A DNA stretch of 64,000 nucleotides from an uncultured Chloroflexia bacterium. Lineage in GTDB: Bacteria > Chloroflexota > Anaerolineae > Promineifilales > Promineifilaceae. Position numbers and translations under genes: made by a program. The stretch is taken from NCBI GenBank assembly GCA_963695505.1, contig CAVOGX010000012.1, forward strand, positions 120,768 through 184,767, written 5' to 3'. The notes under the pieces are model-generated. The model worked only from the letters and a program-made list of their open reading frames with translations, was not told where the DNA came from and searched no databases. Shown here piece after piece: positions 1-60,118 of this stretch (position 1 is its first letter; each line of letters starts with the position of its first letter).

Positions 1-255
1 AAGGCCACCCGCGAATTGGAAGTGGACATTGCGCTGCCGGACGGAGCCAGGCTAGTCACAGGACAGAAGAAGACGATGCTGGGCCAGCTTGCTGGGCGAG
101 ACGGCCAGGACAGCGCCCCCCTGTGGAACGACGACGCCACCAGCGAGCGGGCGAAAGTGGAGTGGGTGATAGAGGCTGAACCAGGGACGGAGGTGGAGAT
201 TGTCGCCAGCCACCAGCGGGCGGGCACCATCCGCCAAAGGGTGCGGTTGGAGTAA
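1..255 (+). CDS. C-terminal end of an unidentified protein (gene continues upstream of the window)
   Basis: Frame open from base 1 to the stop at 253-255. No domain is recognisable in the visible ~84 aa. Confidence 0.35.
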   Translation, partial: KATRELEVDIALPDGARLVTGQKKTMLGQLAGRDGQDSAPLWNDDATSERAKVEWVIEAEPGTEVEIVASHQRAGTIRQRVRLE

Positions 256-259
256 GGAT

Positions 260-1159
260 TTGGCGCATCAGGCGAAAGAGCACGGGGCAGCGGCGGCTTT
301 GCAAACGGCCGTTTCCGACCTGCACGTCTTCTTGCATGGGCTGCCTTCGGAAGCGTTACAGCCCAAGGCGTGGGGGCCGCGGGAGGTGTTGGCCCACCTG
401 GTTTTCTGGCTGGAGACCTACGCGACCCAGGTAGAAGCCATGCTGGCTGGCGATCCACCGCCGCGCCCTGTTGGCAGTTATGACCAGCTCAACCAGGCGG
501 CCATAGCCGCCAGCCAATCAGCCACCCTGGTAGATTTGCGGCAGCGCCACCTGGCCGCCAGTAGCCGCCTGGGTGACTTTGCCGCCAGCCACAACCCCGA
601 CACCTTGATTTTCACCCTCAAGGAGGGTTCTGCCCACCGCCGCCCGCTTTCCTGGTACATGCGCGCCGAAGCCCGGCATATCCGCCAACACCTGGCTAAA
701 CTCCAGGCCCAGCAGCAGTGGGATGGAGCAGCCGCTGGGCAAAGTTTGGCCACGGCCGTTTCCGACTTTTGTACCCTCATCACCTCTCTGCCGCCGGAAG
801 CGCTGGCAGCGCAGGCGTGGGGGCCACGTGGGGTGTTAGCGCATCTGGTTTTCTGGCACGAACGCTGGGCGCGAAATATTCAGGAAGTGTTAGCCGAACG
901 GCCGTTTAGCGGCCCATTTGGTACGGTACAGAAACTCAATGCGCTGGCCGTTGCTGAGGGGCGAAACGCTAACGTGGCTGACTTGCTGAAGGTGTTTCGC
1001 GCCGCATGCGAGCAACTGGTCCATTACGGCCGTACCGTCGACCCGCAAGCCATCGCTATTCCGCTGCGCCTGGCCCACGACCGGCGCACCCTGGATGACG
1101 TTCTCGCGGCCGCCACGGCGCACCTACAGGAGCATACCCAGGAACTTGGCGAGGTTTGA
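260..1159 (+). CDS. DinB/MDMPI-like four-helix-bundle protein, internally duplicated (two tandem domains)
   Basis: Two colinear repeats: LQTAVSDLHVFLHGLPSEALQPKAWGPREVLAHLVFW and LATAVSDFCTLITSLPPEALAAQAWGPRGVLAHLVFW. The ATG at 200 overlaps the upstream gene. TTG 260 with GGAG 7 nt upstream is more plausible, so the start is uncertain. Confidence 0.6.
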   Translation: MAHQAKEHGAAAALQTAVSDLHVFLHGLPSEALQPKAWGPREVLAHLVFWLETYATQVEAMLAGDPPPRPVGSYDQLNQAAIAASQSATLVDLRQRHLAASSRLGDFAASHNPDTLIFTLKEGSAHRRPLSWYMRAEARHIRQHLAKLQAQQQWDGAAAGQSLATAVSDFCTLITSLPPEALAAQAWGPRGVLAHLVFWHERWARNIQEVLAERPFSGPFGTVQKLNALAVAEGRNANVADLLKVFRAACEQLVHYGRTVDPQAIAIPLRLAHDRRTLDDVLAAATAHLQEHTQELGEV

Positions 1160-1197: not shown

Positions 1198-1695
1198 TTA
1201 AGCATACAAGAAAGTGCCCGGATCATCTGCCCACATTTGCACCACTTTCTCAAACTGCATGCCCAGCTTCTCAATGAGCCTGATGGAGGCGGTGTTTTCG
1301 GGAACGGTGAGGGCCACAATTTGGGGGATGCCCAGAGTGGAACGGCCGTACTGTAAAACGGCCGTTGCCGCCTCGTAAGCGTACCCCTGGCGATGATAGG
1401 GCGACAGCAGGGCAAAGCCGACGTCCGTGACGTCCAGGCTGGGGCGGTAAAGCAGCCCGCACACGCCAATAGGCTCCCCACTGTCCTGCAACTCCACCAG
1501 CAACTGCCCGTAGCCCGGCCGGGGCTGGTTGGTCCACGCCCCTTCTTGAATGAAGCGTCGGGCGTCGTCCAGATTCCGCACCTCCTTGTCCCCAATGTGG
1601 GCCAGGAAAGCGGGTTCATTCACCAACCGCAGCACAAAGGCCGCGTCGTCCTTTGCCAACTTGCGCAGCCGCAGCCGCTTTGTTTCTAAAATCAT
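1198..1695 (-). CDS. GNAT family N-acetyltransferase (RimJ/RimL-like)
   Basis: 165 aa. MILETKRLRLRKL N-terminus and acetyl-CoA motif region SPYHRQGYAYEAATAVL are typical of RimJ-type GNATs. Confidence 0.8.
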   Translation of the reverse strand: MILETKRLRLRKLAKDDAAFVLRLVNEPAFLAHIGDKEVRNLDDARRFIQEGAWTNQPRPGYGQLLVELQDSGEPIGVCGLLYRPSLDVTDVGFALLSPYHRQGYAYEAATAVLQYGRSTLGIPQIVALTVPENTASIRLIEKLGMQFEKVVQMWADDPGTFLYA

Positions 1696-3290: not shown

Positions 3291-3725
3291 TGCAATCTTC
3301 CTTTTGCTCTGCTTAATCTGCCTCTAGCCCTGGCGGGCATGGTCTAAAGCCTAGTGCCCTACCCGAGCAATCACATTAAACAAAGCACTCAAAGCATGAG
3401 GGAGGATGCCCCTCCTGCTCAAACCCACTTTTATTAACCTGCATGCTTGTGGAAAAAGCTCACCAGTCAGCGAGAATGTGCGATCACAAGTGAAGGGTGA
3501 AGATAGAAAGCATGGTATCGACCTGCGTAACGGCCGTCTGACTCCCGCATCATGGGCCAAAACATACGCGCGCCCATGTGTTGGTATGGCTCTTGCCCAC
3601 ATTTGCAGGATAGCATACCCTTCATTTCCCGGTCAATTGCCTGGAGTTATCGTGCTGCAACGGCCGTTTTCATCCTCACCCAATCCCACATCGCACCATC
3701 GCCCATTTCCCGCTAAAATAACCTC

Positions 3726-6008
3726 ATGGATATTTTGCATGGACTCAACGACGCGCAGAAAACGGCCGTTTCCGCCCCACCTGGCCCCGTTCTCGTCTTG
3801 GCCGGACCGGGCAGCGGCAAAACCCGCGTCCTCACCCACCGCATCGTCTACCTCATCCGCGAAGCTAAACGTCGCCCCCTGGCACATCCTGGCCGTCACC
3901 TTCACCAACAAGGCCGCCCGCGAAATGAACCAGCGCATCGAGCAGATGTCTGGACGGCCGTCCACGCGGCCTGATGATGGGCACCTTCCACTCCACCTGC
4001 GCCCGCATCTTGCGCCGCGAAACCGACAACCTGACCTACTACGAGCAACGATTTCGTCATCTTCGACACCGCCGACCAACAGCAGGTGGTGAAGCAAGCC
4101 CTCAAAGACCTGAACCTGGACGACAAAAAGTTCCCGCCCAACAAGATGCTCAACGGCATCAGCAGCGCCAAGAATGAACTGGTGACGCCCAGGAATTATA
4201 CACGCCACCAACTACATCGCCGCCGTCACGCGGCGTGTTTACGAGCGCTACCAGGACATTTTGCACGCCAACAACGCCATGGACTTTGACGATTTGCTGA
4301 TGAACACCGTGCTTGCTCTTTGACGAACGCCCCGACGTGCTGCAAAAGTACCAGCAGCAGTACCAGCACATCCTGGTAGACGAGTTTCAGGACACCAACA
4401 CGGCCCAATACGCGCTGCTCAAGCGGCTGGCGGTCGGCCATCAACAACATTTTTGTCGTCGGCGACAGCGACCAATCCATTTACAAATGGCGCGGCGCCG
4501 ACTTACCGCAACATCAATCGCTTCCGCGAGAAATTACCCGGAGGCGCAACAAATTTTGCTGGAGCAAAACTACCGCTCCACGCAGATTATTCTGGACGCG
4601 GCCAAGGCGGTCATTCAGCATAACAGCAACCGCGTCCACAAAGATTTGTTCACCGAGCGGCAGGGGGGCGACCTCATCGTCGTGCGGGAAGCGTATAACG
4701 ACGGGAGGAGGCGGAAACCATTGTGAGCACGATTCAATCTGCTCCTGCTGGACGGCTATTCCCCCAGCGATTTTGCCGTCATGTACCGCACCAACGCCCA
4801 ATCCCGCGCCCTGGAAGAAGCCTTTGTCCGCGCCAGCATGCCCTACCGGCTGGTGGGGGCCACCCAATTTTATAAGCGGCGCGAGGTGAAAGACGTGATT
4901 GCCTATTTGCGACTGGTGCATAATCCGGCCGATTCGGTCAGCTTCAACCGTATCATCAACACCCCCACGCGCGGCATTGGCACCAAAACCTGCAAACGCT
5001 GAACTGCCTGGGCGCAGCAAATGGGCTGGCTGCCAGCGGAAGCGCTAATGAAGCTGGCCTTGACCCGGACGTACAGCATCCGTTTAACGGCCGTGCCTTC
5101 AACGCCCTGAGCGACTTTGGCGAGATGTACTCGATGCCTGGATCACGCTGCACGAGCAGGAAATCAGCGTCGGCGAACTGATGGACACCATTTTGGAGCA
5201 AACCGGCTACCGCGAATACATCGAAGACAGCGCCAAAGACAGCGACGAGTACGTGGACCGCTGGGCCAACGTGATGGAACTGCGCAACACGGCCGCAGAA
5301 GACGGCCGTTTCCCTCACCGAATTCCTGGAACATGTCGGCCCTGGTCTCCGAAACCGACAACGTGGAAGAGGGCATTGCCGCCACCACGCTGCTCACCCT
5401 GCACGCCGCCAAAGGGCTGGAGTTTCCGGTCGTCTTCATCGTTGGGCTGGAGGATGGCATTCTGCCCCACAGCCGCTCGCTGGACGACCCGCGACGACCT
5501 GGACGAGGAGCGCCGCCTCTTTTACGTGGGCATCACTCGCGCCATGGACCGCCTTTACCTCTCCCACGCCTTCCGGCGCACGGTGTGGGGCCAGCCGGAC
5601 GTGGCTGTGCCCTCCCGCTTTTTGCGCGAGATTCCCGATGACCTGCTGGCGGGGGCCAGCGCTAAAGCGCGGCGGCAGCAAACGAAAACGCGGGCCAGCA
5701 GTTGGAATTGGTCTGCCCAAGCTACACCCACCACCCGGTCAACCAGAAACAGCAGGCAGCAACAGGAACGGCCGTTGCCCCGCTCCCGCTCATTGCCCAC
5801 GCCCAATACCTATGATGAACCCACGCCGCCAGCCCCCAGCGGTCCCAGATTCCACACCGGGCAGCGCGTGCGCCACGCCAAATTCGGCGAAGGCACCGTC
5901 ATCGACAGCAAAGTCGTCGGCAATGACGAAGAAGTCCACGTCGCCTTTGCCGGGGAAGGGGTCAAGCGTCTGGCCGCCTCCTTTGCCAAACTCGAAATTC
6001 TTGATTAG
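3726..6008 (+). pseudogene. pcrA: UvrD/PcrA-type ATP-dependent DNA helicase, broken into at least 8 frame pieces as assembled
   Basis: Helicase motifs appear in the correct order across ORFs 3726-3974, 3406-4092, 3974-4177, 4086-4289, 4313-4726, 4781-5002, 5117-5641 and 5181-6008: [61 protein letters not shown] and a C-terminal Tudor-like tail GQRVRHAKFGEGTV. Confidence 0.9.
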
Positions 6009-6022
6009 CCTATTCACAAAAC

Positions 6023-6910
6023 ATGCACTATCTCATCGACGGCCATAACCTCATCGGCAAGCTGCCGGACATCAAGCTCAGCGATTCTGACGACGAGATT
6101 CGCCTGATTTTGCGCCTGAAGGGGTGGGTATCCGGCCACAAACAGCGCCAGGTGACGGTAGTTTTTGATGGCGGTATAACCGGCGGCATTTCGCACCGCC
6201 TTTCCACTAAAGCCATTACCGTGGTCTTTGCGCCGCAGGGCAAAACGGCCGACGATTTGCTCATTCAGCGGCTCAAGCGGCTGCGCAATCCGCGCAATTA
6301 CACTCTGGTCAGCAGCGACCGCCGCATTTTGGATGCGGCCAAAATTGCGCGCATCAAGCACCTGAAGTCGGAAGAGTTCATTACCCAGTTGGGCTTTGTC
6401 TTCCGCGAGGAGCCCAAACCGCCTGCGAAAACTGTCCCCGTTGCCTCGCCGCCTGACGCTGAAAAAGCGGATGACCCGCAAATCAGCGATGCCGAGGTGG
6501 ACGAATGGCTGAACCTCTTTGGCCCTGCCCCTAAATCGCAGCCGAAACGCCGGCGCGGATCTTACAGCGTGCTGCGCAAACAGGGGGAAGAGACCACGCC
6601 AGAAGCGGAGTCGCAGCCAGAGGAGCGCCGCCCGCTAACGCCGGAAGAGTTTGCGGCTATGGCGGAGTCGGACAACCCGGAGCTGGATGAGGCAGAGGTG
6701 GCAGAATGGCTGGCGCTGTTTGGCGGGGAGCAGGCGGGCAAGAAACGGCCGTCCATTACCTCCAAGCCCACCAAATCCCAATCCGTGCGCCAAAAAGAAG
6801 AGAAACCCGCCGCCTCTGGCCGCCTGACCACCATGAAAGACGCCCCGCGCAAGCTGAGCCAGGACGAAGTAGACGAGTGGCTGCAGCTTTTTGGCGGGGA
6901 CGCCGAGTAA
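6023..6910 (+). CDS. NYN/YacP-like (Rae1-type) RNase domain protein with a repetitive acidic C-terminal tail
   Basis: N-terminus MHYLIDGHNLIGKLP...VTVVFDGG...TADDLLIQR matches the YacP/NYN fold. The tail carries 3 copies of an EV(D/A)EWLxLFG motif. Confidence 0.7.
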   Translation: MHYLIDGHNLIGKLPDIKLSDSDDEIRLILRLKGWVSGHKQRQVTVVFDGGITGGISHRLSTKAITVVFAPQGKTADDLLIQRLKRLRNPRNYTLVSSDRRILDAAKIARIKHLKSEEFITQLGFVFREEPKPPAKTVPVASPPDAEKADDPQISDAEVDEWLNLFGPAPKSQPKRRRGSYSVLRKQGEETTPEAESQPEERRPLTPEEFAAMAESDNPELDEAEVAEWLALFGGEQAGKKRPSITSKPTKSQSVRQKEEKPAASGRLTTMKDAPRKLSQDEVDEWLQLFGGDAE

Positions 6911-6976
6911 TTAAAAGGGCGCACCTTTGATAGGTACGCCCTTCGTTGCGGGAATGGGAAATGTGGGAAACGGCCG

Positions 6977-8479
6977 TTACGCCATCTCTGCCGCCGCTAA
7001 CTCCTTCAACAGCCCTACCCGCTCGTTAAACGCATCAATCAGCGCGTCCATCTCATCCACGTGGCCGTGAATGCTCGTCCAGTAATTCGGATCATACCAC
7101 TGAGCCTGAATTTCTTCGTAGGTCTTGCCTTGCTGCTCGACCCAGGTGAAATACTTCAGGTTGTGGACCCGCTTGCGGTCCACGTAGGTCAGTTCCTGCA
7201 TATTGTCCGTCGTTTCGCCCAGCAGATAGCGTTGGAAGACGCCAGCCGCATCCAGTTCGCTGAATTCGCCTTCTTCTTCGGTGCAGTTCTACCAGCCGGC
7301 TCTGGTACATTTCCATCGAGTCGGTAGCGACGGTGATGATCACATCATTGCCGTCCATTTCATAATATTTGGCCGTCTTGATGGCCGCCAGCACATTGGC
7401 CATGCTGGAGATGCCCAACAGCGGCAGGTCGGCGACCAATTCCGGATCTACGCCCTGGCTGACCAGATATTCTTGCCCCGCCGGTTCGTTGAAGAGGCGG
7501 ATCAGGCCCATCGTGGCATTGTCGTCAATGGCCGTGACGATGTCGGTGTTCTTGACGTTGTGAATCCAGGGCACGTGCTTGTCGCCAATGCCTTCGATGC
7601 GGTGCGCGCCAAAGCCGTTGTTGAGCAAGGTGGGGCATTGCAGCGCTTCGCTGGCCACGATTTTGCTGTGCGGGGAACTGCTCTTTCATGTAGTCGCCAC
7701 AGGCAATGGTGCCGCCGGAACCGGTGTTGGAGACGGTGGCGCGGAAGCGGTCACCTGCGCCCATGACCTCGCCCAGAACTTCCATCATGGCCCGGCCGGT
7801 GACTTCGTAATGCCACAGGTAGTTGCCAAACTCTTCAAACTGGTTGAAGATGACCAGATCTTGCCCGGAGCGGCGCAGTTCCCAGCATTTGTCAAAGATT
7901 TCCTTGACGTTGCTTTCTGAGCCGGGGGTCTTGATGGTTTCGCCAGCCACCGATGGCCAGCCAGTCAAACCGTTCCTTGCTCATGCCTTCGGGCAAAATG
8001 GCGATGGATTCGCAGGCCAGCAGGTTGGAGTCGTATGCGCCGCCGCGGCAGTAGTTGCCGGTGGTGGGCCAGACCGCTTTTTGGGTGGTGGGGTCAAATT
8101 GGCCGGTGACCAGACGGGGCACCAGACAGCCAAAAGCCGCGCCGACTTTGTGCGCGCCGGTGGGGAACCATTTGCCCAGCAGAACGACGATGCGGGCATC
8201 GACGCCGGTCAGTTCTTTGGGCAGTTCCAGGTAGTTGACGCCGCCAAATTTGCCGCCGCTTTCTTTGGGCTCGTTGTGCCAGGTGATGCGGAACAGGTTC
8301 AGCGGGTTCAAATCCCACAAGCCGACATCTTCCAGCTTCTCCTTGATGGCGTCAGGAATCAGGTTCGGGTTGATCATCTGCTTGAAGGTGGGGATGATAA
8401 TATTTTGTTCGCGGGCGCGCTGAATGGCGCGTTCCAGCTTGGCTTCATCGTGAATGGTTAAATCAATTAAATCGCTCAT
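6977..8479 (-). pseudogene. Fold-type II PLP-dependent enzyme (cysteine synthase-like, ~490 aa), 3 frameshifts as assembled
   Basis: Pieces 7892-8479, 7525-7968, 7092-7658 and 6977-7201 are colinear. PLP-lysine region FPTGAHKVGAAF and phosphate loop SNTGSGGT are present. Confidence 0.75.
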
Positions 8480-8549: not shown

Positions 8550-9814
8550 TCATCCGATTTCTTGCATAACCTGCTTCAGGCTATCCAAATTTGGCTCCAC
8601 CCGGTTGGGTTTTGTGCCCACCATTTCGACTGATTTCATGGCGCCGGCGACATCTTTCAGGCCGTTGCCGGTGTTGAGGACGACAATGCGGTCGTCGGCG
8701 CGACACCAGCCCCAGTTCGACCGCTTTGACCAGGCCGGCGTAGGCGGCCGCTCCGGCCGGTTCGGCAAAGACGCCGGTGCCGCGGGCCAGGGCGGGAATG
8801 GCGGCCAGGATTTCGTCGTCGGTGACGCTGATGTAAGCGCCGTTGGTTTCGGTAACGGCCGCTAACGCTTTAATGCGGTCTCGCGGCAGCCCGGCGCTGA
8901 TGCTGTCGGCGACGGTGACGCCGGAGACGGGCGCTTTGGTCAGCACATCTTCGCCGTCTGCGCCACGCTTCGTACATGAAGGCGCTGCCTTCGGCCTGCA
9001 CGCCGATAGATGCGCGGCATGTGGTCAATCCAGCCCAGGGCCAGCAAATCTTTCAGCCCTTTGTGCAGCCCGCCGATGATGCAGCCATCGCCCACGCTGA
9101 CGAAGATGACATCGGGGGCGTTCCAGTCGAGCTGTTCACAAATTTCGTAAACGGCCGTTTTCTTGCCCTCGGTCATGTACGGATTGTAGGCGGTATTGCG
9201 GTTGTACCAGCCGTACTCGGCCGCCGCTTCCAGACACAGCTCAAAGGCGTCATCATAGGTGCCTTTGACCAGCATCACCGTCGAGCCAAAGACCAGCAGT
9301 TGGGCGATTTTGGCCTGCGGCGCGGATTCCGGCACAAAGATGACGTTGGGCTGCTTCGACGCTGGCGCAGATGCCGCTCAGGGCGGCGGCGGCGTTGCCG
9401 GTGCTGGCCGTGGTGATGATCTCGGCCCCTTTTTCCTGCGCTTTGACCACAGCGATGGCGCTGGCACGGTCTTTGAAGGAGGCGGTCGGTAAACGGCCGT
9501 CATCCTTCACCCACACATGCTTCAACCCCAATTCCGCCGCCAGCCGGTCCGCCTCGTACAGCGGCGTCCCGCCAACCGTCAGCGGCGGCACCGGCGCATC
9601 CGGCTGCAACCGGCAGCAGCGGCTTGTAGCGCCAGATCGTGTGATCCGGGTTCTCGGCCAGGCTTTCCCGGCTGATGCGCTGTCCAATTAGTTCATAATC
9701 GTAGCGCACATCAACAATGCCTTCGTTGCCGTGATCGGGGCAAATATACTCAATTTCATCCGGGGCATATTCTTTGCCGCAGATGAGACATTTAAGGTGT
9801 TTTACGTGATCCAT
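8550..9814 (-). pseudogene. thrC: Threonine synthase-like PLP enzyme, about 4 frameshifts as assembled
   Basis: Zn-ribbon N-terminus KCLICGKEY...CPDHG, PLP lysine motif PTASFKDRAS and STGNAAAALS. Colinear pieces are 9500-9814, 9253-9687, 8940-9335, 8581-8946 and 8550-8768. Confidence 0.8.
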
Positions 9815-50944: not shown

Positions 50945-51862
50945 TCATTTTATTTGCTTCCAAATTAGTAAGAATATCACACCCACCAGCAAGATCATAG
51001 CAACAAACCCCGCCGCCCAAAAGCCTGCGCCGGGATTCCACCCGGTAGTCGTGGGTTGAGGCGTGGGGTTTGCAGCCTGCGTGGGCGAATTTGCCGCTGG
51101 CGTAACGGCCGTTCCCCCTCCCGCCGGGCGCAAATAGCTGCCAAAGGCCAGTTGCGCCACGCTGCCCACTGATAAGCTTACTGCCCAATCCCCATCGGTA
51201 GTCAGCACTTCCTGGGGGTTGATGGAGCGGGTCACGTGATAAGCGCCGCCCCGCAGTCCCTCAATGCAGTACGGTTCAGAACTGCCGTTGGTAATGTAAT
51301 TAGCGACAACGGCCGTTTCGTCATACACCGTAAAGGCTACTCCCGGGCGCAGCGCCTCCCCGGCATCGTACACGCCGTCCCGGTTCTGGTCGTTAAAGGC
51401 CAACAGACAAACGGCCGTGCGCGGCGGCAAAATCGTGGGGCGTGGCGTAGGCGGGGGCAGCGTGGCCGTCGGCACTGGGGGGGCGGTCGGGGTTGCCGGC
51501 GGCTCTACAATTCCCACGATTAGCAAATCTCCCGGGCGAATCAACGTATTTTCCGTCAGCCCCTCATTCAGCGCCAGAAGCTCGGCAAACAACAACCCGT
51601 GCCGCCCAGCAATGGCCCACAATGAATCATTGGGCTGCACCACCGCATAAATGACGCCGTTGGCATCCGGCGTGGAGGTAGGCAGCGGCGGCTCTTGGGC
51701 CAGCGCCGGGGTGGCTAGCAAGAAAAGCAGCAAAAGTATTAAGATTAGAGATTGGAGATTAGAGATTGGTAGCGTTAATTGCCAATCTCCAATTTCCAAT
51801 CTTCGTTTATTACTTATCAATGTCCACTCTCCAGCTATCGCCTGCCCCACGGCCATTGCCAT
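50945..51862 (-). CDS. LysM + Pro-rich linker + SdrD-B-like domain protein with a C-terminal TM anchor
   Basis: LysM motif YAVVQPNDSLWAIAGRHGLLFAELLALN, and AFNDQNRDGVYDAGEALRPGV. The start is uncertain (possibly TTG 51799, 8 nt after the upstream stop). Confidence 0.65.
   Translation of the reverse strand: MAMAVGQAIAGEWTLISNKRRLEIGDWQLTLPISNLQSLILILLLLFLLATPALAQEPPLPTSTPDANGVIYAVVQPNDSLWAIAGRHGLLFAELLALNEGLTENTLIRPGDLLIVGIVEPPATPTAPPVPTATLPPPTPRPTILPPRTAVCLLAFNDQNRDGVYDAGEALRPGVAFTVYDETAVVANYITNGSSEPYCIEGLRGGAYHVTRSINPQEVLTTDGDWAVSLSVGSVAQLAFGSYLRPAGGGTAVTPAANSPTQAANPTPQPTTTGWNPGAGFWAAGFVAMILLVGVIFLLIWKQIK
51741..51803. repeat. Heptamer-tract hairpin (GATTAGA/GATTGGA ... CCAATCT/CCAATTT)
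   Basis: gattggagattagagattgg-tagcgttaatt-gccaatctccaatttccaatc lies at the junction of the GT39 stop and the LysM gene 5' end. Confidence 0.8.
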
Positions 51863-53762
51863 CCACTACCGGCAGGCGGTTTTGCCCGGCATCATACAAA
51901 CCAATGAGCACATAATGCCCGGCCGGATCAAAGCCATCGGGCAAGGTCATGGTGCGCTGCTCTTGCAGTTGCAAACCCGGCCGCCACCATGCTGACGGCC
52001 AAAAACCGCCACCGGGCGGCGCATCGTCCTGAGCCACCAGCCCATCAGGGCCAATGACGTGGACAAAGGCGGTCAGCGGTTGGGATACGGCCGTTTCGGC
52101 CGTCCACACCACATTCACCTGCAAGGTCTCATCATCATACAAGAGTGCCTGGGCAGCCTGCAAATACAGCACCCCGCCAAATGAAGCATTGCCAAAGGTG
52201 GCCTGCACCGGCAGGGGCCGCGCCTCCTGCACCTGGTAGCGCACAAACAGCGGGTAAGCCTCTGGCTCCAAATCGCCCCGCGCCTGGGGGCCGGCCGCAA
52301 CGCTCACCAATGCAGTCGGCGGAAATGCTGCCGCCACAAAATCCGTGGCAGCATAGGGCCACACAAACAGGTCGGACGGCAGCGGCAAGGGCGCGGGCAG
52401 CCCAGCGGCGGGTGTGAAGCGGCTCGCGTGGGGGGTTGTCACCAAAAAGGGCACTGCTGGCCAGCCGGACCAATACCGTTCATCCACAAAAATGGCGGCG
52501 TTGGGGTCAGCCCCATTTACATCCTCAGCCAGGGAGCGAGCCGCCGCCTCGAACAGGTAACTCGTATTGGGGTCTCTGCTGTAATTGACATAATCACGAA
52601 CGGTAACGGCCGTACTTCCCACCAGCAGCAGCCCCACCCCCAGCGCCGCCAGCCAGGGTCTGCGCAGCCAATCGGCAATCTGAGACAGCCCCAGCGCCGG
52701 TAAAATAACCACGGCGGGCAGCACGCCTGCCGCCCGCAAAAAATGGGGGGTATCGGCCGCTAAAATCGTCGGCCCCAGCATGACCGCCACCCACAGCAGC
52801 AGCACCCCCGCCGCAGGCTGCCGCCAATGGCGCAAGCACCACACCACGCCCATGAGAAAAGGCAGGGCCATGAAAAGGTCAAATACGGGCCGGCCCGCCG
52901 GATTGTGGCGTAAAATAGTATCTCCGCGCCAGATGAACATGCCCAGCGCCGCCCCCGTCTGCCGCAGCAGCGTACCCCACAAATCGCCGCCGTTTACGGC
53001 CGTATTCAACATAGAAACCTGTCCGGTGCGCCCCAGCAAAATCTCTGGCTGTTGCACCACCAAAAGCGCCAGCGGCAGCAGGGAAACGGCCGTGCCCAGG
53101 GCGAAGAGAAAGAATCAGTAAGCGGTAAGCGGTAAGTAGCAAGCGGAAAGCGGCGCTGACGCCTGGCACCCAAAAACACCACAATCCCCACCAGCAAAAG
53201 CGGCGTAAAGCGCACCGCCAGGTAGGTGTAAAAGGCTGCGCCATACACCAATCCGGCTGCCAACCACAGCCAACCGTGGCGCAACGGTAAGCCCGCGTGC
53301 CCAGCCAAAAGGTCAGCCCCAGCAGCGGAGCCAGCAAAATGGCCCGCAGCCCAATGCGGCTCAGGTGCACAGGCCACAGGGTGATGGCCCACAGCGACGC
53401 CGCCAGCAGCCCCACGCGCTGCCCAAACCACTCGCGCCCCAGCATATAGACCACCAGCGTGGTCAGGCTGCCCACCACCGCCGCCCCCAGGCGCACGGCC
53501 AACGCAGTGCGCCCAAGCAGGGCAATGGCCGCAGCGGTCAGGTAAATGTAAGCTGGTTCACGGCCGTTGTTGGCCGTGAAAAAGAGCGCATGTTCCCCAT
53601 CCAGCACGCGCAGCGCGTCCAGGCCGTTATACGCTTCGTCCCGGTACAGACCGGGCGGCCAATCACCCAACTGCCAGAAGCGCAGGAAAACGGCCGTAGC
53701 CAGCACCAATAGCAATAAAGCCCACCCAACTTTGGTGAGCTTAAGTCTCGTCCCATATCCAT
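51810..53762 (-). pseudogene. GT39/ArnT-like (PMT_2) membrane glycosyltransferase, at least 3 frameshifts as assembled
   Basis: FLRFWQLGDWPPGLYRDEAYNGLDALRVL..FFTANNGREPAYIY. Pieces are 53538-53762, 52879-53715, 53006-53431 and 51810-53063. Confidence 0.8.
53114..53153. repeat. (CGGTAAG/CAGTAAG/CGGAAAG) heptamer tract inside the GT39 gene, at a frame break
   Basis: Read as RFPLATYRLPLTDSF on the gene strand. The reading frame changes at its downstream edge. Confidence 0.75.
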
Positions 53763-55057: not shown

Positions 55058-56106
55058 GTGATTACGAAGCCATCCCCCATGATGAAGCAGTCTCTGGCAA
55101 GAAAACCCGTCGTGGTCGCCGCGTACTGGGGCTTGTCCTTCTCATTACTTCACTGCTCCTGGCAATTTATTTGTTGGTGGCCTATATGGGCTGGCAAAGC
55201 GGGCAGGCTTTACTGGTTGAAAAACAGCAAACCGGTTTGAGCAACCTGGTCAGCCGCCAGATCGAATTGGCCCAGGAAGATATCGCCCAGGGCAGCTACT
55301 CGCTGGCCATTCGCCGCCTGGAATGGGTGCTGGAGCGCTCGCCGGGCAACAATCAGGCCGAGGTACTGCTGCTGCAAGCCCAAGAAGCGCTGCAAATTGT
55401 GCTGACTCCTGACCTGGCTGCTGCTTCGCCAACGGCTACAATCGCGCCTATGCCTTCACCAACGCCTGGCGCTATCTCCGACCCAGACCAGGAGCTGCAG
55501 CGCATTCGCCGCCTGGTGGTTATTGAAGCCTGGGAGGACGCTATGGAAGCGCTTGTTTCCTTCCAATTGCAATTTCCTGATTTCGAGCGCCAGGAAACCA
55601 ATCGAATGCTTTACGATGCCTATCTGAACCTGGGCTTGCAGAATGTAGAGGGGGAGTACGTGGAATTGGGGTTGTATTACCTGGGTCTGGCCGAAAATTT
55701 GGGTGATTTGCCCCAAGAAGCAGAAGATTACCGGCTGTGGGCAGATTGGTATTTGCAGGGTATAGGCTTTTATGGTGTGAATTGGGAATTCGCCACGGGC
55801 TATTTTCGAGATTTATGCCTGGTGGCGCCTTTTTATCAGGCTTCCTGTGATTTGCTGTACGAGTCGCTGGTAGCCCTAGGAGACCAGTATGCCGCCGCAG
55901 GTGAGTGGTGCCCGGCACAGGAACAGTACCAGGAAGCCCGGCAGCAGCAGCGCAGCGTTGCCCTGATAGATAAGCTTGAAACGGCCGTTACCAACTGCAG
56001 CAGCGCCACGCCAACGCCGTCCGTGATTACCAATACGCTGCCCCTTAGCCAAACCCAACAGTTTGTACCGCCATTTTTTGTCACGCCGACGCCGCTTTCT
56101 CCATAA
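55054..56106 (+). CDS. Membrane-anchored TPR-like protein
   Basis: ATGA start/stop overlap with the GT4 gene. One TM (LGLVLLITSLLLAIYLLVAY) is followed by helical-repeat sequence. Confidence 0.55.
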   Translation: MSDYEAIPHDEAVSGKKTRRGRRVLGLVLLITSLLLAIYLLVAYMGWQSGQALLVEKQQTGLSNLVSRQIELAQEDIAQGSYSLAIRRLEWVLERSPGNNQAEVLLLQAQEALQIVLTPDLAAASPTATIAPMPSPTPGAISDPDQELQRIRRLVVIEAWEDAMEALVSFQLQFPDFERQETNRMLYDAYLNLGLQNVEGEYVELGLYYLGLAENLGDLPQEAEDYRLWADWYLQGIGFYGVNWEFATGYFRDLCLVAPFYQASCDLLYESLVALGDQYAAAGEWCPAQEQYQEARQQQRSVALIDKLETAVTNCSSATPTPSVITNTLPLSQTQQFVPPFFVTPTPLSP

Positions 56107-56158: not shown

Positions 56159-57553
56159 ATGCCTGAACTTGGTGAACCTCTCAGCGACCGCGAAATGGAC
56201 GTGCTGGCCTGCATGGTGCAAGGCGCGCAAAATAAAGAGATTGCCGCGGAGCTATTCATTAGCGAAAACACGGTGAAAGTACACCTGCGGCGTATTTACA
56301 CGAAGCTGGGCGTCTCTTCGCGTACCGAAGCCACCACCGTTGCCCTGCAAAAAGGGCTGGTAGCCGTGCCCGGCCTGGAAACAACCAGCCCCGTGGCGGA
56401 CGACCCAGACCCGGCAGCAGCAGACGTGGGTGTCGGGGAAGGGGAAGCCGAGTCTGGGGCAATATCCGACAATGTGCCTGAAACGGCCGTTTCTGACCTA
56501 TCTCCTGCTGCTCGCCCTGCGCCATGGCGCAATCTTGGTTTGGGAATCGCTCTCGTCGTCATTGTGGCGCTGCTGGGATTTGTTGTGTGGCAGCAGCAAA
56601 ACGTCATTGCGCCAGATGATGACCCGCAGACGTGCAGCGAGCGCCCCTTAGGCGATTCCCGCTGGTTGGTTAGCCAGGCTATGCCCGAGGGGCGAATGGG
56701 TATGGCCACGGCAGCCGTGGGCCTGGACATTTACCTCATTGGGGGAGGCAGCGGGCAGGATGCCGTGAACCAGGTCGACGTATACGATACGGCAAACTGC
56801 CAGTGGCGCTCGGGCGCGCCCAAGCCAACGGCCGTTTCCGACACGCGGGCAGCCGTCCTCTTCGGTGAAATCTATATTCCGGGCGGGCGGGGCGCAGATG
56901 GTTTACCCACCAGCACTGTGGAAGTGTTCAGTCCCGCCAACAACCTGTGGCGGACCATCGCCCCCCTGCCCGCACCCAACAGCGGCGGGCTGGTACTGGA
57001 ACAGGGCGGCTTGCTCTACCTCTTTGGCGGTTGGGATGGCGAGAGCTATTTGGCCACAGCTTACGCCTACAACCCGGCTCTGGACAGTTGGGAAACCCTG
57101 CCGCCTATGGGCCAGGCGCGCGCATTTGCCACCGGCGGCGCCCTCTCCGGGCTGCTTTTTGCGGTCGGTGGTTACGATGGCGCCAACGAACTGAATACCT
57201 GCGCCGCGTTCGATCCTGCTGGCAGCGCCTGGCAAGCCTGCCCCGGCATGCTTCAGCCCCGCGCCGGGGCCGGAGCAGTCGTCATCCTCAACAAGCTGTA
57301 CGTGATGGGCGGGGGCATGCAGGCCGACAGCCTCATTTCCTACGGTGAAGAATACAATCCGGCTACCCAAACCTGGCAAGTCGTGGACACGCCCATGCTC
57401 GGGAATGCTGGAAGCTGGTTCTTACCGGGCATCGCCAACATTGAAACCCGCATCTATGCTTTTGGCGGCCGCCAAAACGAGACAGTGCTGGCCGACACCT
57501 ACGTGCTGCGGGCTGTCTTCCAAACCTTTTTGCCCGCTATGCCCAATCAGTAA
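56159..57553 (+). CDS. LuxR-type HTH + TM + Kelch-repeat beta-propeller protein
   Basis: LSDREMDVLACMVQGAQNKEIAAELFISENTVKVHLRRIYTKLGV, TM GLGIALVVIVALLGFVVW, and repeated ..YLIGG/..YIPGG/..YLFGG/..FAVGG/..YVMGG Kelch blades. Confidence 0.75.
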   Translation: MPELGEPLSDREMDVLACMVQGAQNKEIAAELFISENTVKVHLRRIYTKLGVSSRTEATTVALQKGLVAVPGLETTSPVADDPDPAAADVGVGEGEAESGAISDNVPETAVSDLSPAARPAPWRNLGLGIALVVIVALLGFVVWQQQNVIAPDDDPQTCSERPLGDSRWLVSQAMPEGRMGMATAAVGLDIYLIGGGSGQDAVNQVDVYDTANCQWRSGAPKPTAVSDTRAAVLFGEIYIPGGRGADGLPTSTVEVFSPANNLWRTIAPLPAPNSGGLVLEQGGLLYLFGGWDGESYLATAYAYNPALDSWETLPPMGQARAFATGGALSGLLFAVGGYDGANELNTCAAFDPAGSAWQACPGMLQPRAGAGAVVILNKLYVMGGGMQADSLISYGEEYNPATQTWQVVDTPMLGNAGSWFLPGIANIETRIYAFGGRQNETVLADTYVLRAVFQTFLPAMPNQ

Positions 57554-60118
57554 TGGCCCAATCTGGGGGTATGTACCAGGCCAATTTTGCGCGATACGGC
57601 CGTTTCCTGCGCACACTGGCCTTGTTTCTCGGTGTTTTGATTTTTCTGGTCTGGGGTGTGTGGGGCACGTTGCCGCACACCGCACTGCGCAGCCTGTTCA
57701 GCCCCATCACGGCCGTTGACATCAACCAGCACCGCCGCGACACCCCCGCCCCCATACCCACAGGCGCTTTCACCCTGCAGCAAACCTTCACCCCCCGCTG
57801 GAATGGCTTTCGTGAGCTGGAAGTTCGCTTTTATCGTGTTGCAGAAACGCCGAATGCCGGCAAGCATTACCTTGCGCTTGCAAGACGCCGGTGGGCAAAC
57901 CATCAGCGAAGCCACGCTGCCCAACGACACAATAGCCCAGGACCAGCGTCACGTGATGCAATTTCCGCCCCAGGCAAACTCTGCCGGGCAGGTGTACACG
58001 CTGGCTGTTAGCGGAGATGCGTGCCAACGAAGTGTCGCTTTGGGGGTATGGCTTGGATGCCCATGCGGGGGGCGCGCTGGCCCTGGTTTACGGCCCGTTG
58101 GCGGCCGAAACGGCCGAAACCCCCACCAGCGCCGCCGACCTCACCTTTACCACCCGCTACCACCTAACCGGGAAAGATGCCCTGGCCTACCTGGGTCAAA
58201 CGTTAACCCGGCAGGGAAGCCTGCTGCTGCTCACCCTGCTCTTTTTGCTGCTGCCTGGCGCGCTGCTGCTGCTGGGGTGGCGCAGCCCTCTTTCACATTG
58301 GGACGCCGCAGCCTGGACCGGCACAGCTTTGGCCCTGGGAACGGCCGTCTGGCCTCTGCTTTGGCAGTTTCTGACCCTGTTAGGCGGGCGCTGGCGCGGG
58401 TGGTCTCTGTGGGCGGTACTCATCCTGGGCTGGCTGGCCGTCCTTTGGCTGCTTTGGAAAAGATGGAACGCAGAGTTTCGCAGAGAAAAAACACCAAAAG
58501 CGCTGTTTGCTCCTCCGCGCCCTTGCTCCTCTGCTCCCTTGCTCCCCCACGTCTCCGCTCCCTTGCTTCCCCGCTCCTCCGCGCCCTTGCTCCTCGTTCT
58601 GCTGCTCGCCGTAGGGCTGGCGGTGCGGCTGCTGGCGGTGCGGGACATTAACATCCCGCCCTGGGTAGACGCCAGCCGCCACGGCCTGATTACGGCCGTG
58701 ATGCGCGACAGCGGCCAGGCCATCAGCGACTACGGGAGCTATTTGCCCGTTACCCGTTTTCCCTACCATTACGGCTTCCACACCCTTTCCGCCAGCCTGG
58801 CGCTGCTGTCGGGGCGACCCTTGCCAGAGCTGCTGCTCTTTTTGGGGCAGTTACTCAATGCCCTGGTGCCGCTGACCACCTATGCGGCGCTGTGGCTGCT
58901 GACGCGGCGGCCTATGGCCGGGCTGCTGGGGGCCTTTTTCGTGGCGCTGCCCTTTTTGTTCCCGGGCTACTACGCCACCTGGGGCCGCCTGACGCAGCTC
59001 ACAGCCATGCTGCTCATGCCGCTGGCCCTGGCCCTGACCTGGCTGGTGGTGCGCGGGGGCCGAGTTGGCGGCGGGGCTGGTGGCTGCTGGCACTGCTGGC
59101 GGCGGGGCTGTTTTTGGTGCATTTTCGCGTGTTTACCTTTTATTTGCCTTTTGCGGCGCTGGTGTGGCTGGCGAGCCGGGGGCGCAACGGCCGTTTCCTG
59201 GCTTTGGCGGCTGCGGTGGGGCTGCTGCTGGTCAGCCCGCGCCTCTGGCAGTTACTGTCCGTCACCGACCCGGCGCGGGCCATCAACGCCGGCCCCAGCG
59301 ACTACAACGCCTTCCCCACCGGTTACCTGGAAGCGGGCTGGGAGCAGGCCTTTGTGGCCCTGGGCGCCATTTGCCTGGCGCTGGCCCTGGCAGGCGCACT
59401 CAAACGCCGCCGCTGGGCGGCGCTGCCCCTGCTGCTGGCGGCCTGGGTGGCGGCCCTTTTCTTGCTGCTGGCGGGCGAGCGGCTGGGGCTGCCGGAAACC
59501 TGGGTGATTAACCTGAACAGCATGTACATCACCCTCTTTTTGCCCCTGGCCATGCTGCTGGCTGTAACGGCCGTTCAGGTGTGGCAATGGCTGGCGCGGC
59601 AGCGCTGGTGGCTGCAAATGACGGCCAGCTTGCTGGCGGGCGGGCTGCTGGCGGCCCTGTTCCTCTTTGGCGTGCGCAATCAGGTCAACATCCTCAATCC
59701 GCAGACGGTTTTGGCGGAGCCGCCGGACCTGGCGGGCATAGCCTGGGTCGATGCCCACCTGCCGCCGGAGGCACTCATTGCCGTGAGCAGTTGGCAATGG
59801 CTGGGGCAAACCTGGGCCGGGCAGGACGGCGGGGCGTGGCTGACGCCTTTAACCCAGCGCCAAACCACCACGCCCCCGGCCGACTACATTTACAACCGGG
59901 ATTTGGCGGAAGAGGTGCGGGCTTTCAACGAAACGGCCGTGGCCGTGGCCGACTGGAGCGACCCGGCCCAGGCGGAATGGCTGCGGCAGCAGGGGGTCAC
60001 CCACGTCTTTGTGGGCGCGCGGGGCGGCTTTTTTGACCCGGCGGCCCTGGCCCGCAACCCGGAATTGGAATTGCTGTACGCGGAAGATGGCGTATTTGTC
60101 TTTGCCGTGCGCGACTAA
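57553..60118 (+). pseudogene. Large GT-C-like membrane glycosyltransferase, about 3 frameshifts as assembled
   Basis: TAATG overlap with the upstream gene. Colinear pieces are 57553-58011, 57656-58651 (part), 58017-59507 and 58892-60118. Many TM segments are followed by a soluble C-terminus. Confidence 0.65.
58509..58595. repeat. 8-nt periodic tract (GCTCCTCC/GCGCCCTT/GCTCCCTT...) in-frame in a CDS
   Basis: Read as APPRPCSSAPLLPHVSAPLLPRSSAPLL. Confidence 0.75.

Follow-up and report, generated by a model that had tools for sequence, protein, structure and literature searches.

The function of highly iterated palindrome 1 (HIP1) of cyanobacteria has been debated for thirty years, with methyl-directed repair, a recombination hotspot, an uptake signal and nucleoid structure all put forward. 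The debate persists partly because all known cases of such highly iterated palindromes (HIPs) lie in one phylum and share one evolutionary history. HIP1 (GCGATCGC) reaches a density of 300-2700 per Mb and an over-representation of 15-300-fold (PMC4390886, PMC5861425), and its distribution is reported to be periodic at 10-90 kb (PMC5861425). An orphan methyltransferase targets the HIP1 core; once methylated, HIP1 makes transformation of Synechococcus PCC 7002 more efficient, and recombination too (bioRxiv 10.1101/2024.09.10.611283). The element analysed here is the octameric palindrome ACGGCCGT, which recurs throughout a 64,000-nt stretch (positions 120,768 to 184,767, forward strand) of contig CAVOGX010000012.1; this whole stretch is referred to as the window.

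ACGGCCGT is apparently an undescribed counterpart of HIP1 in a second phylum: a literature search on the word or on Chloroflexota returned no report of it as an over-represented element, although an earlier mention stays possible, and the HIP literature found deals with cyanobacteria only. With the HIP class taken sensu Robinson 1995, Elhai 2015 and Xu 2018, the explanation judged rather likely is that ACGGCCGT is a HIP-type palindrome that acts by the mechanism proposed in the last section, a signal carried by the DNA throughout the genomes of a clade of filamentous Chloroflexota. In this view it is neither gene nor RNA, and neither mobile element nor protein motif. The initial annotation of the window had called it a HIP1-like hyper-abundant palindrome with a different word, and this was supported in every test run. 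That it represents an independent second origin of HIPs outside Cyanobacteria, with a different core (CGGCCG) and with the phages of the clade carrying it too, is put forward more tentatively, at somewhat less than even confidence.

Abundance, form and coding context in the window

The window, with a G+C content of 56.1% where roughly 60% had been estimated, contains exactly 90 exact copies of ACGGCCGT, spread from 305-312 to 59933-59940, and none in 59941-64000. The initial annotation had noticed about 90 octamers between 305 and 59940; the positions it gave as examples (3762, 9151, 20437, 22274, 46836 and 59187) all hold a copy, and its perfect 16-mer at 26727-26742 is an exact GGAAACGGCCGTTTCC. 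Dinucleotide-preserving shuffles of the window (n=100) yielded 1.04 ± 1.02 copies (maximum 4), and Markov models trained on the window and evaluated per site predicted 1.5 (order 0), 1.9 (order 2), 2.75 (order 3), 8 (order 4) and 34 (order 5); orders 4 and 5 give too high an expectation because the motif itself provides most of its 5- and 6-mers. The runner-up palindromic octamer occurs 8 times. In pooled clade DNA (209 kb) with the motif masked for the model, 307 copies were counted versus 4.3-4.9 expected (~65-fold). The excess measured by shuffles and by the masked clade pool is thus ~65-90-fold, in agreement with the tens-fold excess estimated earlier, at a density of ~1.4 per kb (~1400 per Mb).

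All copies are listed below with 4 nt of flank on the left and right (left/right). As ACGGCCGT is palindromic, they are given without strand ("."). Reading phases refer to a crude set of non-overlapping open reading frames (ORFs), in which phase 0 is ACG GCC GTn (T-A-V), phase 1 is x-G-R and phase 2 is R-P-x. Numbers beginning with L denote comparison loci fetched from relatives, unrelated genomes and phages, and "same column in L082" marks an exact copy at the equal alignment column of the syntenic contig L082.

305..312; gcaa/ttcc; ORF 200-1159 (+), phase 0
752..759; ggcc/ttcc; ORF 200-1159 (+), phase 0
898..905; ccga/ttag; ORF 200-1159 (+), phase 2
1026..1033; catt/accg; ORF 200-1159 (+), phase 1
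1342..1349; tgga/actg; ORF 1198-1695 (-), phase 1
1358..1365; taaa/tgcc; ORF 1198-1695 (-), phase 0
3530..3537; cgta/ctga; ORF 3406-4092 (+), phase 1
3660..3667; tgca/tttc; ORF 3406-4092 (+), phase 2
3762..3769; gaaa/ttcc; ORF 3406-4092 (+), phase 2
3954..3961; ctgg/ccac; ORF 3406-4092 (+), phase 2
5087..5094; ttta/gcct; between ORFs
5302..5309; gaag/ttcc; ORF 5181-6008 (+), phase 1
5768..5775; agga/tgcc; ORF 5181-6008 (+), phase 2
6745..6752; agaa/ccat; ORF 6023-6910 (+), phase 2
6970..6977; ggaa/tacg; between ORFs
9151..9158; gtaa/tttc; ORF 8976-9416 (+), phase 1
9493..9500; gtaa/catc; ORF 9371-9691 (+), phase 2
10132..10139; ttca/actg; ORF 9888-10454 (-), phase 0
13294..13301; gttg/tttc; ORF 13078-13446 (-), phase 1; same column in L082
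13734..13741; ggat/cttc; between ORFs; same column in L082
13881..13888; ggaa/caag; between ORFs; same column in L082
14084..14091; cgta/atac; ORF 13954-14706 (-), phase 0
14276..14283; agaa/tgac; ORF 13954-14706 (-), phase 0
14366..14373; ggtg/cagg; ORF 13954-14706 (-), phase 0
14612..14619; caga/gttg; ORF 13954-14706 (-), phase 0
15411..15418; ggaa/tgct; ORF 14772-15557 (-), phase 1
16984..16991; caat/tttc; ORF 16322-17116 (-), phase 2; same column in L082
17869..17876; ggta/ttgc; ORF 17311-18339 (-), phase 1; same column in L082
18004..18011; ccca/ttcg; ORF 17311-18339 (-), phase 1
19842..19849; agaa/tacg; between ORFs
20144..20151; agga/tcat; ORF 19971-22205 (-), phase 2; same column in L082
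20437..20444; ggaa/tttc; ORF 19971-22205 (-), phase 0
20941..20948; atca/atcc; ORF 19971-22205 (-), phase 0; same column in L082
22274..22281; agaa/tttc; between ORFs
23142..23149; ggaa/tgtc; ORF 22293-24089 (-), phase 1; same column in L082
23455..23462; atga/agcc; ORF 22293-24089 (-), phase 0; gained here, two amino-acid changes
24291..24298; ctgc/tttg; ORF 24113-25555 (-), phase 0; same column in L082
24642..24649; caga/tttc; ORF 24113-25555 (-), phase 0; same column in L082
25856..25863; aaga/tccc; between ORFs; same column in L082
26083..26090; ggtt/ttct; ORF 26017-27174 (+), phase 0
26727..26742 (core octamer 26731-26738); sole perfect 16-mer GGAAACGGCCGTTTCC; ORF 26017-27174 (+), phase 0
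27100..27107; ggaa/caaa; ORF 26017-27174 (+), phase 0
27469..27476; cttt/taac; ORF 27193-27726 (+), phase 0
28382..28389; atca/tttc; ORF 27727-28413 (-), phase 0
29636..29643; tggc/ttcc; ORF 29602-29988 (+), phase 1; same column in L082
30116..30123; ggga/ttac; ORF 29996-31408 (+), phase 0; same column in L082
31055..31062; gggc/tctc; ORF 29996-31408 (+), phase 0; same column in L082
31743..31750; tggc/atcg; ORF 31405-32175 (+), phase 2; same column in L082
31958..31965; ggga/ttcc; ORF 31405-32175 (+), phase 1; same column in L082
32477..32484; tggt/agcc; ORF 32207-32512 (-), phase 1
32680..32687; ggca/ttcc; ORF 32490-33287 (-), phase 0; same column in L082
32898..32905; gttc/gcgc; ORF 32490-33287 (-), phase 1
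33190..33197; ggaa/ttcg; ORF 32490-33287 (-), phase 0; same column in L082
35165..35172; ataa/agtt; between ORFs
37973..37980; agcg/aacg; ORF 35530-38388 (+), phase 1
38961..38968; gtag/tctg; ORF 38566-39099 (-), phase 2
39280..39287; gcgg/attc; ORF 39216-40310 (+), phase 1; same column in L082
39391..39398; acat/tcca; ORF 39216-40310 (+), phase 1; same column in L082
40210..40217; ggaa/tgcc; ORF 39216-40310 (+), phase 1
40610..40617; gaga/tgca; ORF 40443-41159 (+), phase 2
41004..41011; tgac/tatc; ORF 40443-41159 (+), phase 0
44037..44044; tata/tgcc; ORF 43613-45130 (+), phase 1
46485..46492; gtta/tccg; ORF 46424-49564 (-), phase 0
46767..46774; ggta/ttct; ORF 46424-49564 (-), phase 0
46836..46843; gaaa/ttcc; ORF 46424-49564 (-), phase 0
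47767..47774; caca/ttcc; ORF 46424-49564 (-), phase 2
47923..47930; ggcg/attt; ORF 46424-49564 (-), phase 2
48603..48610; caga/tgct; ORF 46424-49564 (-), phase 0
49146..49153; ggca/tacc; ORF 46424-49564 (-), phase 0
49731..49738; caca/tggc; ORF 49598-50905 (-), phase 0
50823..50830; ctgt/ttcc; ORF 49598-50905 (-), phase 0
51105..51112; cgta/tccc; ORF 50945-51862 (-), phase 0
51309..51316; gaca/ttcg; ORF 50945-51862 (-), phase 0
51411..51418; acaa/gcgc; ORF 50945-51862 (-), phase 0
52087..52094; ggat/ttcg; ORF 51810-53063 (-), phase 0
52606..52613; ggta/actt; ORF 51810-53063 (-), phase 0
52996..53003; gttt/attc; ORF 51810-53063 (-), phase 0
53086..53093; ggaa/gccc; ORF 53006-53431 (-), phase 2
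53560..53567; gttc/tgtt; between ORFs
53690..53697; gaaa/agcc; between ORFs
55981..55988; tgaa/tacc; ORF 55054-56106 (+), phase 0
56483..56490; tgaa/ttct; ORF 56063-57553 (+), phase 0
56828..56835; gcca/ttcc; ORF 56063-57553 (+), phase 0
57596..57603; cgat/ttcc; ORF 57553-58011 (+), phase 1
57709..57716; catc/tgac; ORF 57553-58011 (+), phase 0
58341..58348; ggga/ctgg; ORF 58017-59507 (+), phase 0
58692..58699; gatt/gatg; ORF 58017-59507 (+), phase 0
59187..59194; cgca/ttcc; ORF 58017-59507 (+), phase 0
59567..59574; tgta/tcag; between ORFs
59933..59940; cgaa/ggcc; last copy, 13 nt ahead of motif-free tail start

The non-random flanks reported earlier proved real: the 90 window copies show a weak, symmetric preference, with A at -1 in 68%, T at +1 in 66%, and G at -3/-4 and C at +3/+4 each in ~50% of copies. 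The resulting palindromic extension, GGAA-ACGGCCGT-TTCC, carries no information beyond ±4 and is identical across all motif-rich clade genomes; in the window the extended words AACGGCCGTT and AAACGGCCGTTT occur 42 and 9 times, and the 16-mer GGAAACGGCCGTTTCC once. Left-right covariation beyond the marginals is small in host DNA (z ~0-2 mostly, ≤3.8 at ±4), and because the two flanks barely covary they would fit a protein dimer reading two half-sites better than a base-paired hairpin or cruciform. The hairpin or cruciform reading was rejected on this ground and on empty Rfam and tRNA scans. Repeat families in the window are anchored by the core alone, with similarity lost within four bases on either side, and the unit is therefore 8 nt, or 16 at most, and not a longer element. 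The core hexamer CGGCCG occurs 139 times, 90 of them inside ACGGCCGT and the other 49 at about chance level.

Phase 0 holds 43 copies, phase 1 holds 21, phase 2 holds 15, and 11 lie between ORFs, so that the motif is found in all phases and in spacers, as the initial annotation had remarked. The between-ORF copies (12%) equal the share of the window outside ORF calls, ~88% of copies being in ORFs, and no excess between genes or in terminator-like pairs was found in the window. Shuffling of synonymous codons within each ORF gave 10.2 ± 2.9 copies versus 80 observed in ORFs, a null expectation that is still too high because the proteins themselves are altered. The tripeptide T-A-V occurs 48 times versus 8 expected (six-fold), with 43 of the 48 spelled by ACGGCCGT, and permutations of T-A-V occur 6-18 times each; the recurring peptides noticed earlier are confirmed as T-A-V, x-G-R and R-P-x. 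The shuffling result and the T-A-V excess therefore indicate that the pressure acts on the DNA and that the proteins bear the cost. An alignment of the bacterial-type prolyl-tRNA synthetase (ProRS) provides examples, the copy gained in the window at 23455..23462 giving PATAVHA versus PAVAINA in most relatives, and a copy gained in L001 giving EITAVGA versus EIVAAGA in the others. At ProRS sites that permit the word (N-G-R, R-P-L), motif-rich genomes use the exact motif codons, and the motif-poor, high-GC loci L009 and L010 lack them.

Relatives, phages and DNA of probably recent arrival

The best relatives of the bacterial-type ProRS (22293-24089, minus strand) share 68-76% identity and are all Chloroflexota, their metagenome-assembled genomes (MAGs) being labelled Anaerolineae, Ardenticatenaceae, Candidatus Promineifilaceae and Candidatus Leptofilum. 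The clade is that of filamentous Chloroflexota, relatives of Promineifilaceae and Ca. Leptofilum in the class Anaerolineae. Densities of ACGGCCGT in comparison loci were as follows.

L001-L004, L006 and L007 (independent MAGs): 11-20 per 10 kb
L005, L008 and L011: 3-5 per 10 kb
L010 and L013: 0 per 10 kb
Unrelated loci (other phyla, distant Chloroflexota): at most 1.8 per 10 kb

Four further loci were obtained via a protein index. L081, from another assembly, is 98.4% identical in nucleotides over 6.5 kb and has 11 of 11 ACGGCCGT sites in common with the window; L082 and L083 are ~78-83% identical to the window and syntenic over ~17 kb; and L084 is a further close relative. Metagenome contigs with the 16-mer amount to at least 120 loci, and 84 among the matches listed have no fewer than 4 additional copies per 10 kb, their G+C contents lying between 43 and 62%. 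The initial annotation had proposed that a motif confined to this contig, or made by assembly or polishing, would count against its view; neither holds, as the motif is clade-wide and present in independent assemblies.

The window contains a pair of adjacent ProRS genes, the bacterial-type one with an editing domain and a second at 24113-25555 (-) of archaeal/eukaryote-like type, for which an exact sequence look-up gave no record; the pair is kept in L001, L005, L008, L081, L082 and L084, and not in the Leptofilum group.

Alignment of the window to L082 revealed 26 one-base insertions and 5 deletions in coding DNA, located neither in homopolymers nor near the motif, in the stretches 11.2-14.0, 16.3-18.1 and 29.5-32.5 kb and probably also 3.4-6.0 and 9.9-10.8 kb. 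Genes for adenine deaminase, ornithine carbamoyltransferase, a GntR regulator and a 977-aa glycosyltransferase are split in the window and intact in L082; UvrD-like and amino-acid-kinase ORFs of the window also appear split. Either a noisy, insertion-prone long-read assembly or true pseudogenes may account for the indels. They make the ORF-based counts approximate, whereas the results at DNA level are independent of ORF calls. Because the indels lie away from the motif, a sequencing-error origin of it was rejected.

The noise of the assembly is the one point that would favour a trivial origin of ACGGCCGT, whether as an assembly or polishing error, a product of codon or amino-acid usage, or a small mobile element. 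Such an origin has a negligible probability, as independently assembled genomes have the same word in the same places, only 10 copies and not 80 are left after synonymous shuffling, the repeats share the core only, and copies are in frame within conserved genes, without indels; it is regarded as refuted by the independent assemblies, the shuffles and the repeat structure. Repetitive extragenic palindromes and bacterial interspersed mosaic elements (REP/BIME) and miniature inverted-repeat transposable elements (MITEs) are likewise dispersed and palindromic, but are at least 20-40 nt long, imperfect, intergenic and mobilised by transposase, whereas ACGGCCGT measures 8-16 nt and lies mostly in ORFs.

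Sister lineages enrich the CGGCCG core with other outer bases, namely CCGGCCGG or NCGGCCGN where the window has ACGGCCGT. L012 (JAKEFB010000121.1, Chloroflexota MAG PMV_2.24), a sister lineage with a variant word on this core, contains 142 CGGCCG in 21.7 kb versus 13-36 in unrelated loci of similar G+C, with 36 copies of CCGGCCGG and 5 of ACGGCCGT, and C precedes half of all its half-sites. L009-L011 contain 3.5-4.9 CGGCCG per kb with mixed outer bases. Alternative cyanobacterial HIPs (PMC5861425, PMC4390886) include GGGATCCC (Yellowstone Synechococcus), CAGGCCTG (PCC 6312), TCGATCGA and GGCGCC (Calothrix); these words likewise drift or are replaced between lineages, showing that HIPs are not tied to a single word, but all lie inside Cyanobacteria, and none of them has ACGGCCGT or a CGGCCG core.

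In IMG/VR, the 16-mer was found in 31 loci, ~23 of them with 10-35 ACGGCCGT per 10 kb. IMGVR_UViG_3300037470_000663 (L097, L111 and L116) has the motif along its whole length, at 21-30 copies per 10 kb, with CGGCCG present 128 times in 21.4 kb; judged by its genes, which encode a major head protein, portal, TerL, TerS, HNH, a DnaB-like helicase, an O-like initiator and two DNA methyltransferases (N6_N4 class and D12 class), it is a bona fide phage. Relatives chosen by the large terminase subunit (TerL) of L116 gave the following densities of ACGGCCGT.

L117, TerL 86% identical: 26.5 copies per 10 kb
L118, TerL 65% identical: 8.6 copies per 10 kb
L119, TerL 64% identical: 5.7 copies per 10 kb
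L121, TerL 58% identical: 18.5 copies per 10 kb
19 TerL relatives at most 47% identical: 0 copies in 17, and a single copy in L123 and in L125

The motif-bearing members of this unbiased set span 5.7-26.5 per 10 kb, overlapping the host range. Two of the distant TerL relatives, L120 and L122 (IMG/VR, 52.6% G+C), have no CGGCCG in 6.4 and 9.6 kb, which in this small sample may reflect avoidance of an EagI-type site in other hosts.

Phages of these hosts are loaded with the motif at host-like or higher density; islands that look recently acquired are not. The motif-free stretches of the window are listed here.

59941..64000, strand ".": motif-free tail of 4060 nt, G+C 0.47, P(0 copies) = 0.002 at mean density
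33376..34632, minus strand: UPF0236-family transposase-like ORF, motif-free, within a 1967-nt gap between copies

The tail ORF at 61625-63394 encodes an AriA/GajA/OLD-like defence ATPase with a third-codon-position G+C of 0.32. Direct repeats at 59953-60342 and 61116-61608 (225 nt at 91% and 101 nt at 80% identity) duplicate the 3′ end of ORF 58892-60118 and its downstream spacer, one preceding ORF 60362-61108 and the other the ATPase gene, and the first begins 13 nt past the last motif copy. The arrangement resembles an insertion junction, with a gene entered at its 3′ end, where the motif-free, low-GC tail begins, and the tail is probably recently acquired DNA in which the motif has yet to accumulate. 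The stretch of the UPF0236 ORF is probably recently arrived DNA as well. Elsewhere, copies are scarce at 35.2-38.0 kb (subtilase), where G+C is below that of the rest of the window, and the housekeeping genes at 41012-46484 (MinD, RodA/FtsW, GltX, AhpC) hold one copy in 5.5 kb at a G+C of 0.50.

The loading of phages weighs against functions restricted to the chromosome, such as uptake-driven accumulation or chromosome architecture, and speaks for a process from which any replicon benefits, or else for a mutational or repair drive. The known uptake sequences are 9-12-mers without symmetry that are read in one orientation. The DNA uptake sequence (DUS) of Neisseria and the uptake signal sequence (USS) of Pasteurellaceae resemble ACGGCCGT in occurring ~1 per kb, in genes, in constraining peptides, in being shared by a clade and in being scarce in recently acquired DNA; they differ in being asymmetric and read by a competence receptor, with DUS often forming terminator pairs, whereas ACGGCCGT is palindromic and abundant in phages. 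That ACGGCCGT is a transformation signal of this kind, accumulated by molecular drive through preferential uptake and recombination, is considered unlikely, although its frequency of ~1.4 per kb, its presence in genes at an amino-acid cost, its clade-wide occurrence and its absence from recent-looking DNA would all agree with it, as would the boost that methylated HIP1 gives to transformation of Synechococcus PCC 7002 (bioRxiv 10.1101/2024.09.10.611283) and the link between HIP1 and uptake argued in bioRxiv 10.64898/2026.06.24.733823. A perfect palindrome with symmetric half-site flanks is unlike the asymmetric uptake words, accumulation through uptake should not fill phage genomes, head, portal and terminase genes included, as densely as the host genome or more so, and ACGGCCGT has no between-gene or terminator-like-pair excess. 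The likeness to HIP1 and uptake sequences drawn in the initial annotation thus stands in its HIP1 part, and its uptake part is weakened by the palindromic form and the phage abundance.

Phages that depend on host recombination also carry Chi, another over-represented 5-8-mer read by a DNA-processing enzyme, and Chi over-representation is far below 65-fold. A Chi-like signal for recombination or nuclease attenuation, or a self mark read by a host nuclease, would best explain why phages reach host density or above while recent islands are empty, and such a role has been suggested for HIP1 (PMC4390886; bioRxiv 10.1101/2024.09.10.611283). As a reading in its own right it has a low probability: known Chi sites are asymmetric, strand-oriented, co-oriented with replication and far less over-represented, whereas ACGGCCGT is a palindrome without orientation. 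It overlaps the HIP explanation, in which the process reading the site could be of this Chi-like kind.

Conservation and gain of copies

Conservation was scored as in the HIP1 study of Xu et al. (PMC5861425), as an exact copy at the same alignment column, with all other octamers and octamers of 75% G+C with two CpG as controls (given in that order as fractions conserved).

Window-L082, 79% nucleotide identity: motif 20/26; controls 0.21 and 0.23
L002-L004, ~80% identity: motif 21/22; controls 0.22 and 0.24
L003-L004, ~81% identity: motif 27/29; controls 0.26 and 0.29
L002-L003, ~82% identity: motif 20/22; controls 0.27 and 0.28
Window-L001, 74% identity: motif 6/11; controls 0.14 and 0.14

In the four best-sampled pairs, at ~80% identity, 77-95% of sites are kept versus 21-29% of controls, about four times as many (binomial P = 7e-9 to 7e-13). 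Flanks diverge freely around conserved copies, and 3 of 5 between-ORF window copies in aligned blocks are conserved. From these alignments, the copies appear to be maintained in place by selection, possibly helped by a repair bias.

One-off variants are overall near Markov expectation in the 209-kb clade pool. Transitions at the CpG cytosines (ATGGCCGT and ACAGCCGT classes) are in modest excess (observed/expected (O/E) 1.8), with 19 and 14 copies versus 10.5 and 7.6 expected, and are thus not depleted; outer-base variants are in excess (TCGGCCGT O/E 4.5, GCGGCCGT O/E 2.1); and variants at the central positions (4/5) are the rarest, with 7 versus ~14 expected. The orthologous partners of lost or gained copies have the same spectrum, central positions accounting for 4 of 69 one-off partners. 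In alignments at 88-98% identity, 50 copies are common and 4 differ by one base, and one copy in L007, in a locally divergent stretch, is 3-4 bases off L003 and L004. Many non-shared sites differ from the orthologous partner at ≥3 of 8 positions, some altering amino acids. The pooled mismatches at non-shared partners peak at 1 and 3, a pattern that is not built upon because the pairs are phylogenetically non-independent. The flanks of shared (older) copies are no worse than those of unshared copies (flank score 3.99 versus 3.59, P = 0.11).

The alignments indicate that copies arise by point substitution. Templated patch conversion is unsupported, as older flanks are not worse and close pairs differ mostly by single-base changes. 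Point substitution or gene conversion had been the choice set by the initial annotation, and what was seen are substitutions, in frame, with all but one gain free of indels. The sole indel-linked gain is in the ProRS gene of L001 (L001 9752-11542), where a 9-nt in-frame insertion with a complete motif gives GAA ACG GCC GTT GGC versus GAC GGC in all relatives and adjoins an older GGCCGT.

A functionless by-product of biased repair, in which a methyltransferase together with very-short-patch (VSP)-type or other site-directed mismatch repair restores or creates the word, would act on any DNA replicating in the cell and so load phages too, would be time-dependent in keeping with the empty islands, and would fit the preponderance of CpG transitions among one-off variants; a repair ratchet was proposed by Elhai for the origin of HIP1 (PMC4390886). 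It is nevertheless an improbable account of ACGGCCGT. VSP repair only turns T:G into C:G where the rest of the site is already complete, the neighbours one transition away are about as numerous as chance predicts and thus too few for the ~65-fold excess, many non-shared sites are ≥3 of 8 positions off, including amino-acid-changing ones, and no vsr-like gene was found in ~1 Mb of clade DNA, a small sample. In E. coli, the oligonucleotide biases ascribed to VSP repair fall far short of ~65-fold. A pure VSP-type drive therefore seems quantitatively insufficient, because the neighbour pool is small and undepleted and gains cross three or more differences.

A putative reader and the likeness to HIP1

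According to the HIP explanation, a dimeric protein with sequence specificity, centred on CGGCCG, would recognise the site as a pair of half-sites (GGAA-ACGG / CCGT-TTCC). If HIP1 is taken as the model, this reader would most likely be a solitary DNA methyltransferase, joined by whichever factor recognises the site once methylated. Sites marked in this way would be used by a process of repair or recombination type that acts on all replicons in the cell, both the chromosome and phages. Ordinary point mutation would supply new copies; selection, possibly aided by repair biased to the cognate word, would fix them and keep them in place, and their density would grow with residence time in the lineage.

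Several points weigh against this explanation. The initial annotation had suggested a link to a CGGCCG/GGCC methyltransferase or to Vsr-type repair; Pfam and NCBIfam scans of the ~60 window ORFs gave no methyltransferase, Vsr or reader candidate, and when M.HhaI, M.HaeIII and E. coli Vsr were used as tblastn seeds for C5-methyltransferases and Vsr in ~1 Mb of motif-rich DNA, covering all fetched loci, no host-like match resulted. The methyltransferases that were found are phage-borne, and methylation of the site is proposed by analogy. The conservation of sites could in principle come from word-restoring repair and not from functional selection. The 16-mer itself served to find most of the phage loci, so that their densities are biased upwards, and the phase counts are approximate owing to gene calls made crude by many frameshifts. 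The spacing between copies is near random (coefficient of variation 1.03), with nothing regular at the 64-kb scale.

The C5-methyltransferase seeds matched one phage gene in L119 and a partial one in L128. The L119 gene lies at 5632-6702, beside terminase genes, in a phage that bears the motif. It encodes a C5-cytosine methyltransferase with 38% identity to the M.HaeIII seed in the N-terminal half, and the relatives of this enzyme, a very large family, sit on short contigs of phage-like character, none tied to a host chromosome. The N6_N4 and D12 class methyltransferases of phage L111 recur sporadically in other loci.

Regular spacing of ACGGCCGT was rejected, the only departure from randomness being a mild deficit below ~60 nt. 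We know of no candidate protein for a binding site of a nucleoid-associated or chromosome-organising protein, a reading of ACGGCCGT that is considered very improbable. A symmetric 16-bp site with independent half-sites at conserved positions and the mild depletion of neighbours closer than ~60 nt would suit it, and Xu et al. favour such a role for HIP1, which is periodic at 10-90 kb (PMC5861425); but there is no obvious reason for phages to carry the word at equal or higher density, and spacing is otherwise random within 64 kb.

HIP1 (PMC4390886, PMC5861425) and ACGGCCGT are both 8-nt perfect palindromes of similar density and over-representation, with a weak palindromic extension, that spread by substitution, are least tolerant at the central two bases and have variant words on a shared 6-nt core; both occur in all reading phases and in spacers, with sites conserved above control octamers between diverged genomes (PMC5861425). 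They differ in their core (CGATCG in HIP1, CGGCCG here) and in their hosts, Cyanobacteria versus non-photosynthetic filamentous Anaerolineae. ACGGCCGT has no internal GATC and a Dam-type partner is therefore not implied, unlike for HIP1; the HIP1 system is defined by its cognate methyltransferases DmtA and DmtC, which were not found in the DNA searched here. Abundance in phages, seen for ACGGCCGT, is not mentioned for HIP1 in the available text of Elhai 2015 or Xu 2018. Identity with HIP1 proper was rejected, as the word differs from GCGATCGC and the host is a chloroflexotan by its ProRS relatives; the two are of the same kind only.

A second, unrelated case would make the HIP question comparative, with a different word, relatives ranging from 0 to 20 copies per 10 kb, a sister lineage with another outer base, and phages that carry the word, and gene co-variation could be asked for in both phyla. 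If the explanation is true, hyper-abundant palindromes would be a general marking of resident DNA for repair, recombination or self-recognition, and phage genomes could separate the competing HIP functions. ACGGCCGT is in addition a strong marker for taxonomic and host assignment, applicable to metagenome binning and to linking phages to Promineifilaceae, whose members are abundant wastewater filaments, and its absence flags recently acquired DNA.

Short heptanucleotide tandem arrays were also observed in the window, with units of the GGAGATT/AATCTCC family and CGTGAAA/TTTCACG, GTCAATG/TTGACAA, ATTCCTC, GATGTCG and GTAAGCG. They lie at 9829-9895, 10870-10951, 29884-29911, 30311-30349, 30464-30486, 30905-30971, 31892-31928, 48834-48883, 51738-51800 and 53118-53153, often as inverted pairs 10-150 nt apart, and several are inside large membrane glycosyltransferase-like ORFs. 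L082 has heptamer arrays at the same places with partly different units. The arrays are like the short tandemly repeated repetitive (STRR) heptamer repeats of cyanobacteria, a second parallel with cyanobacterial genomes.

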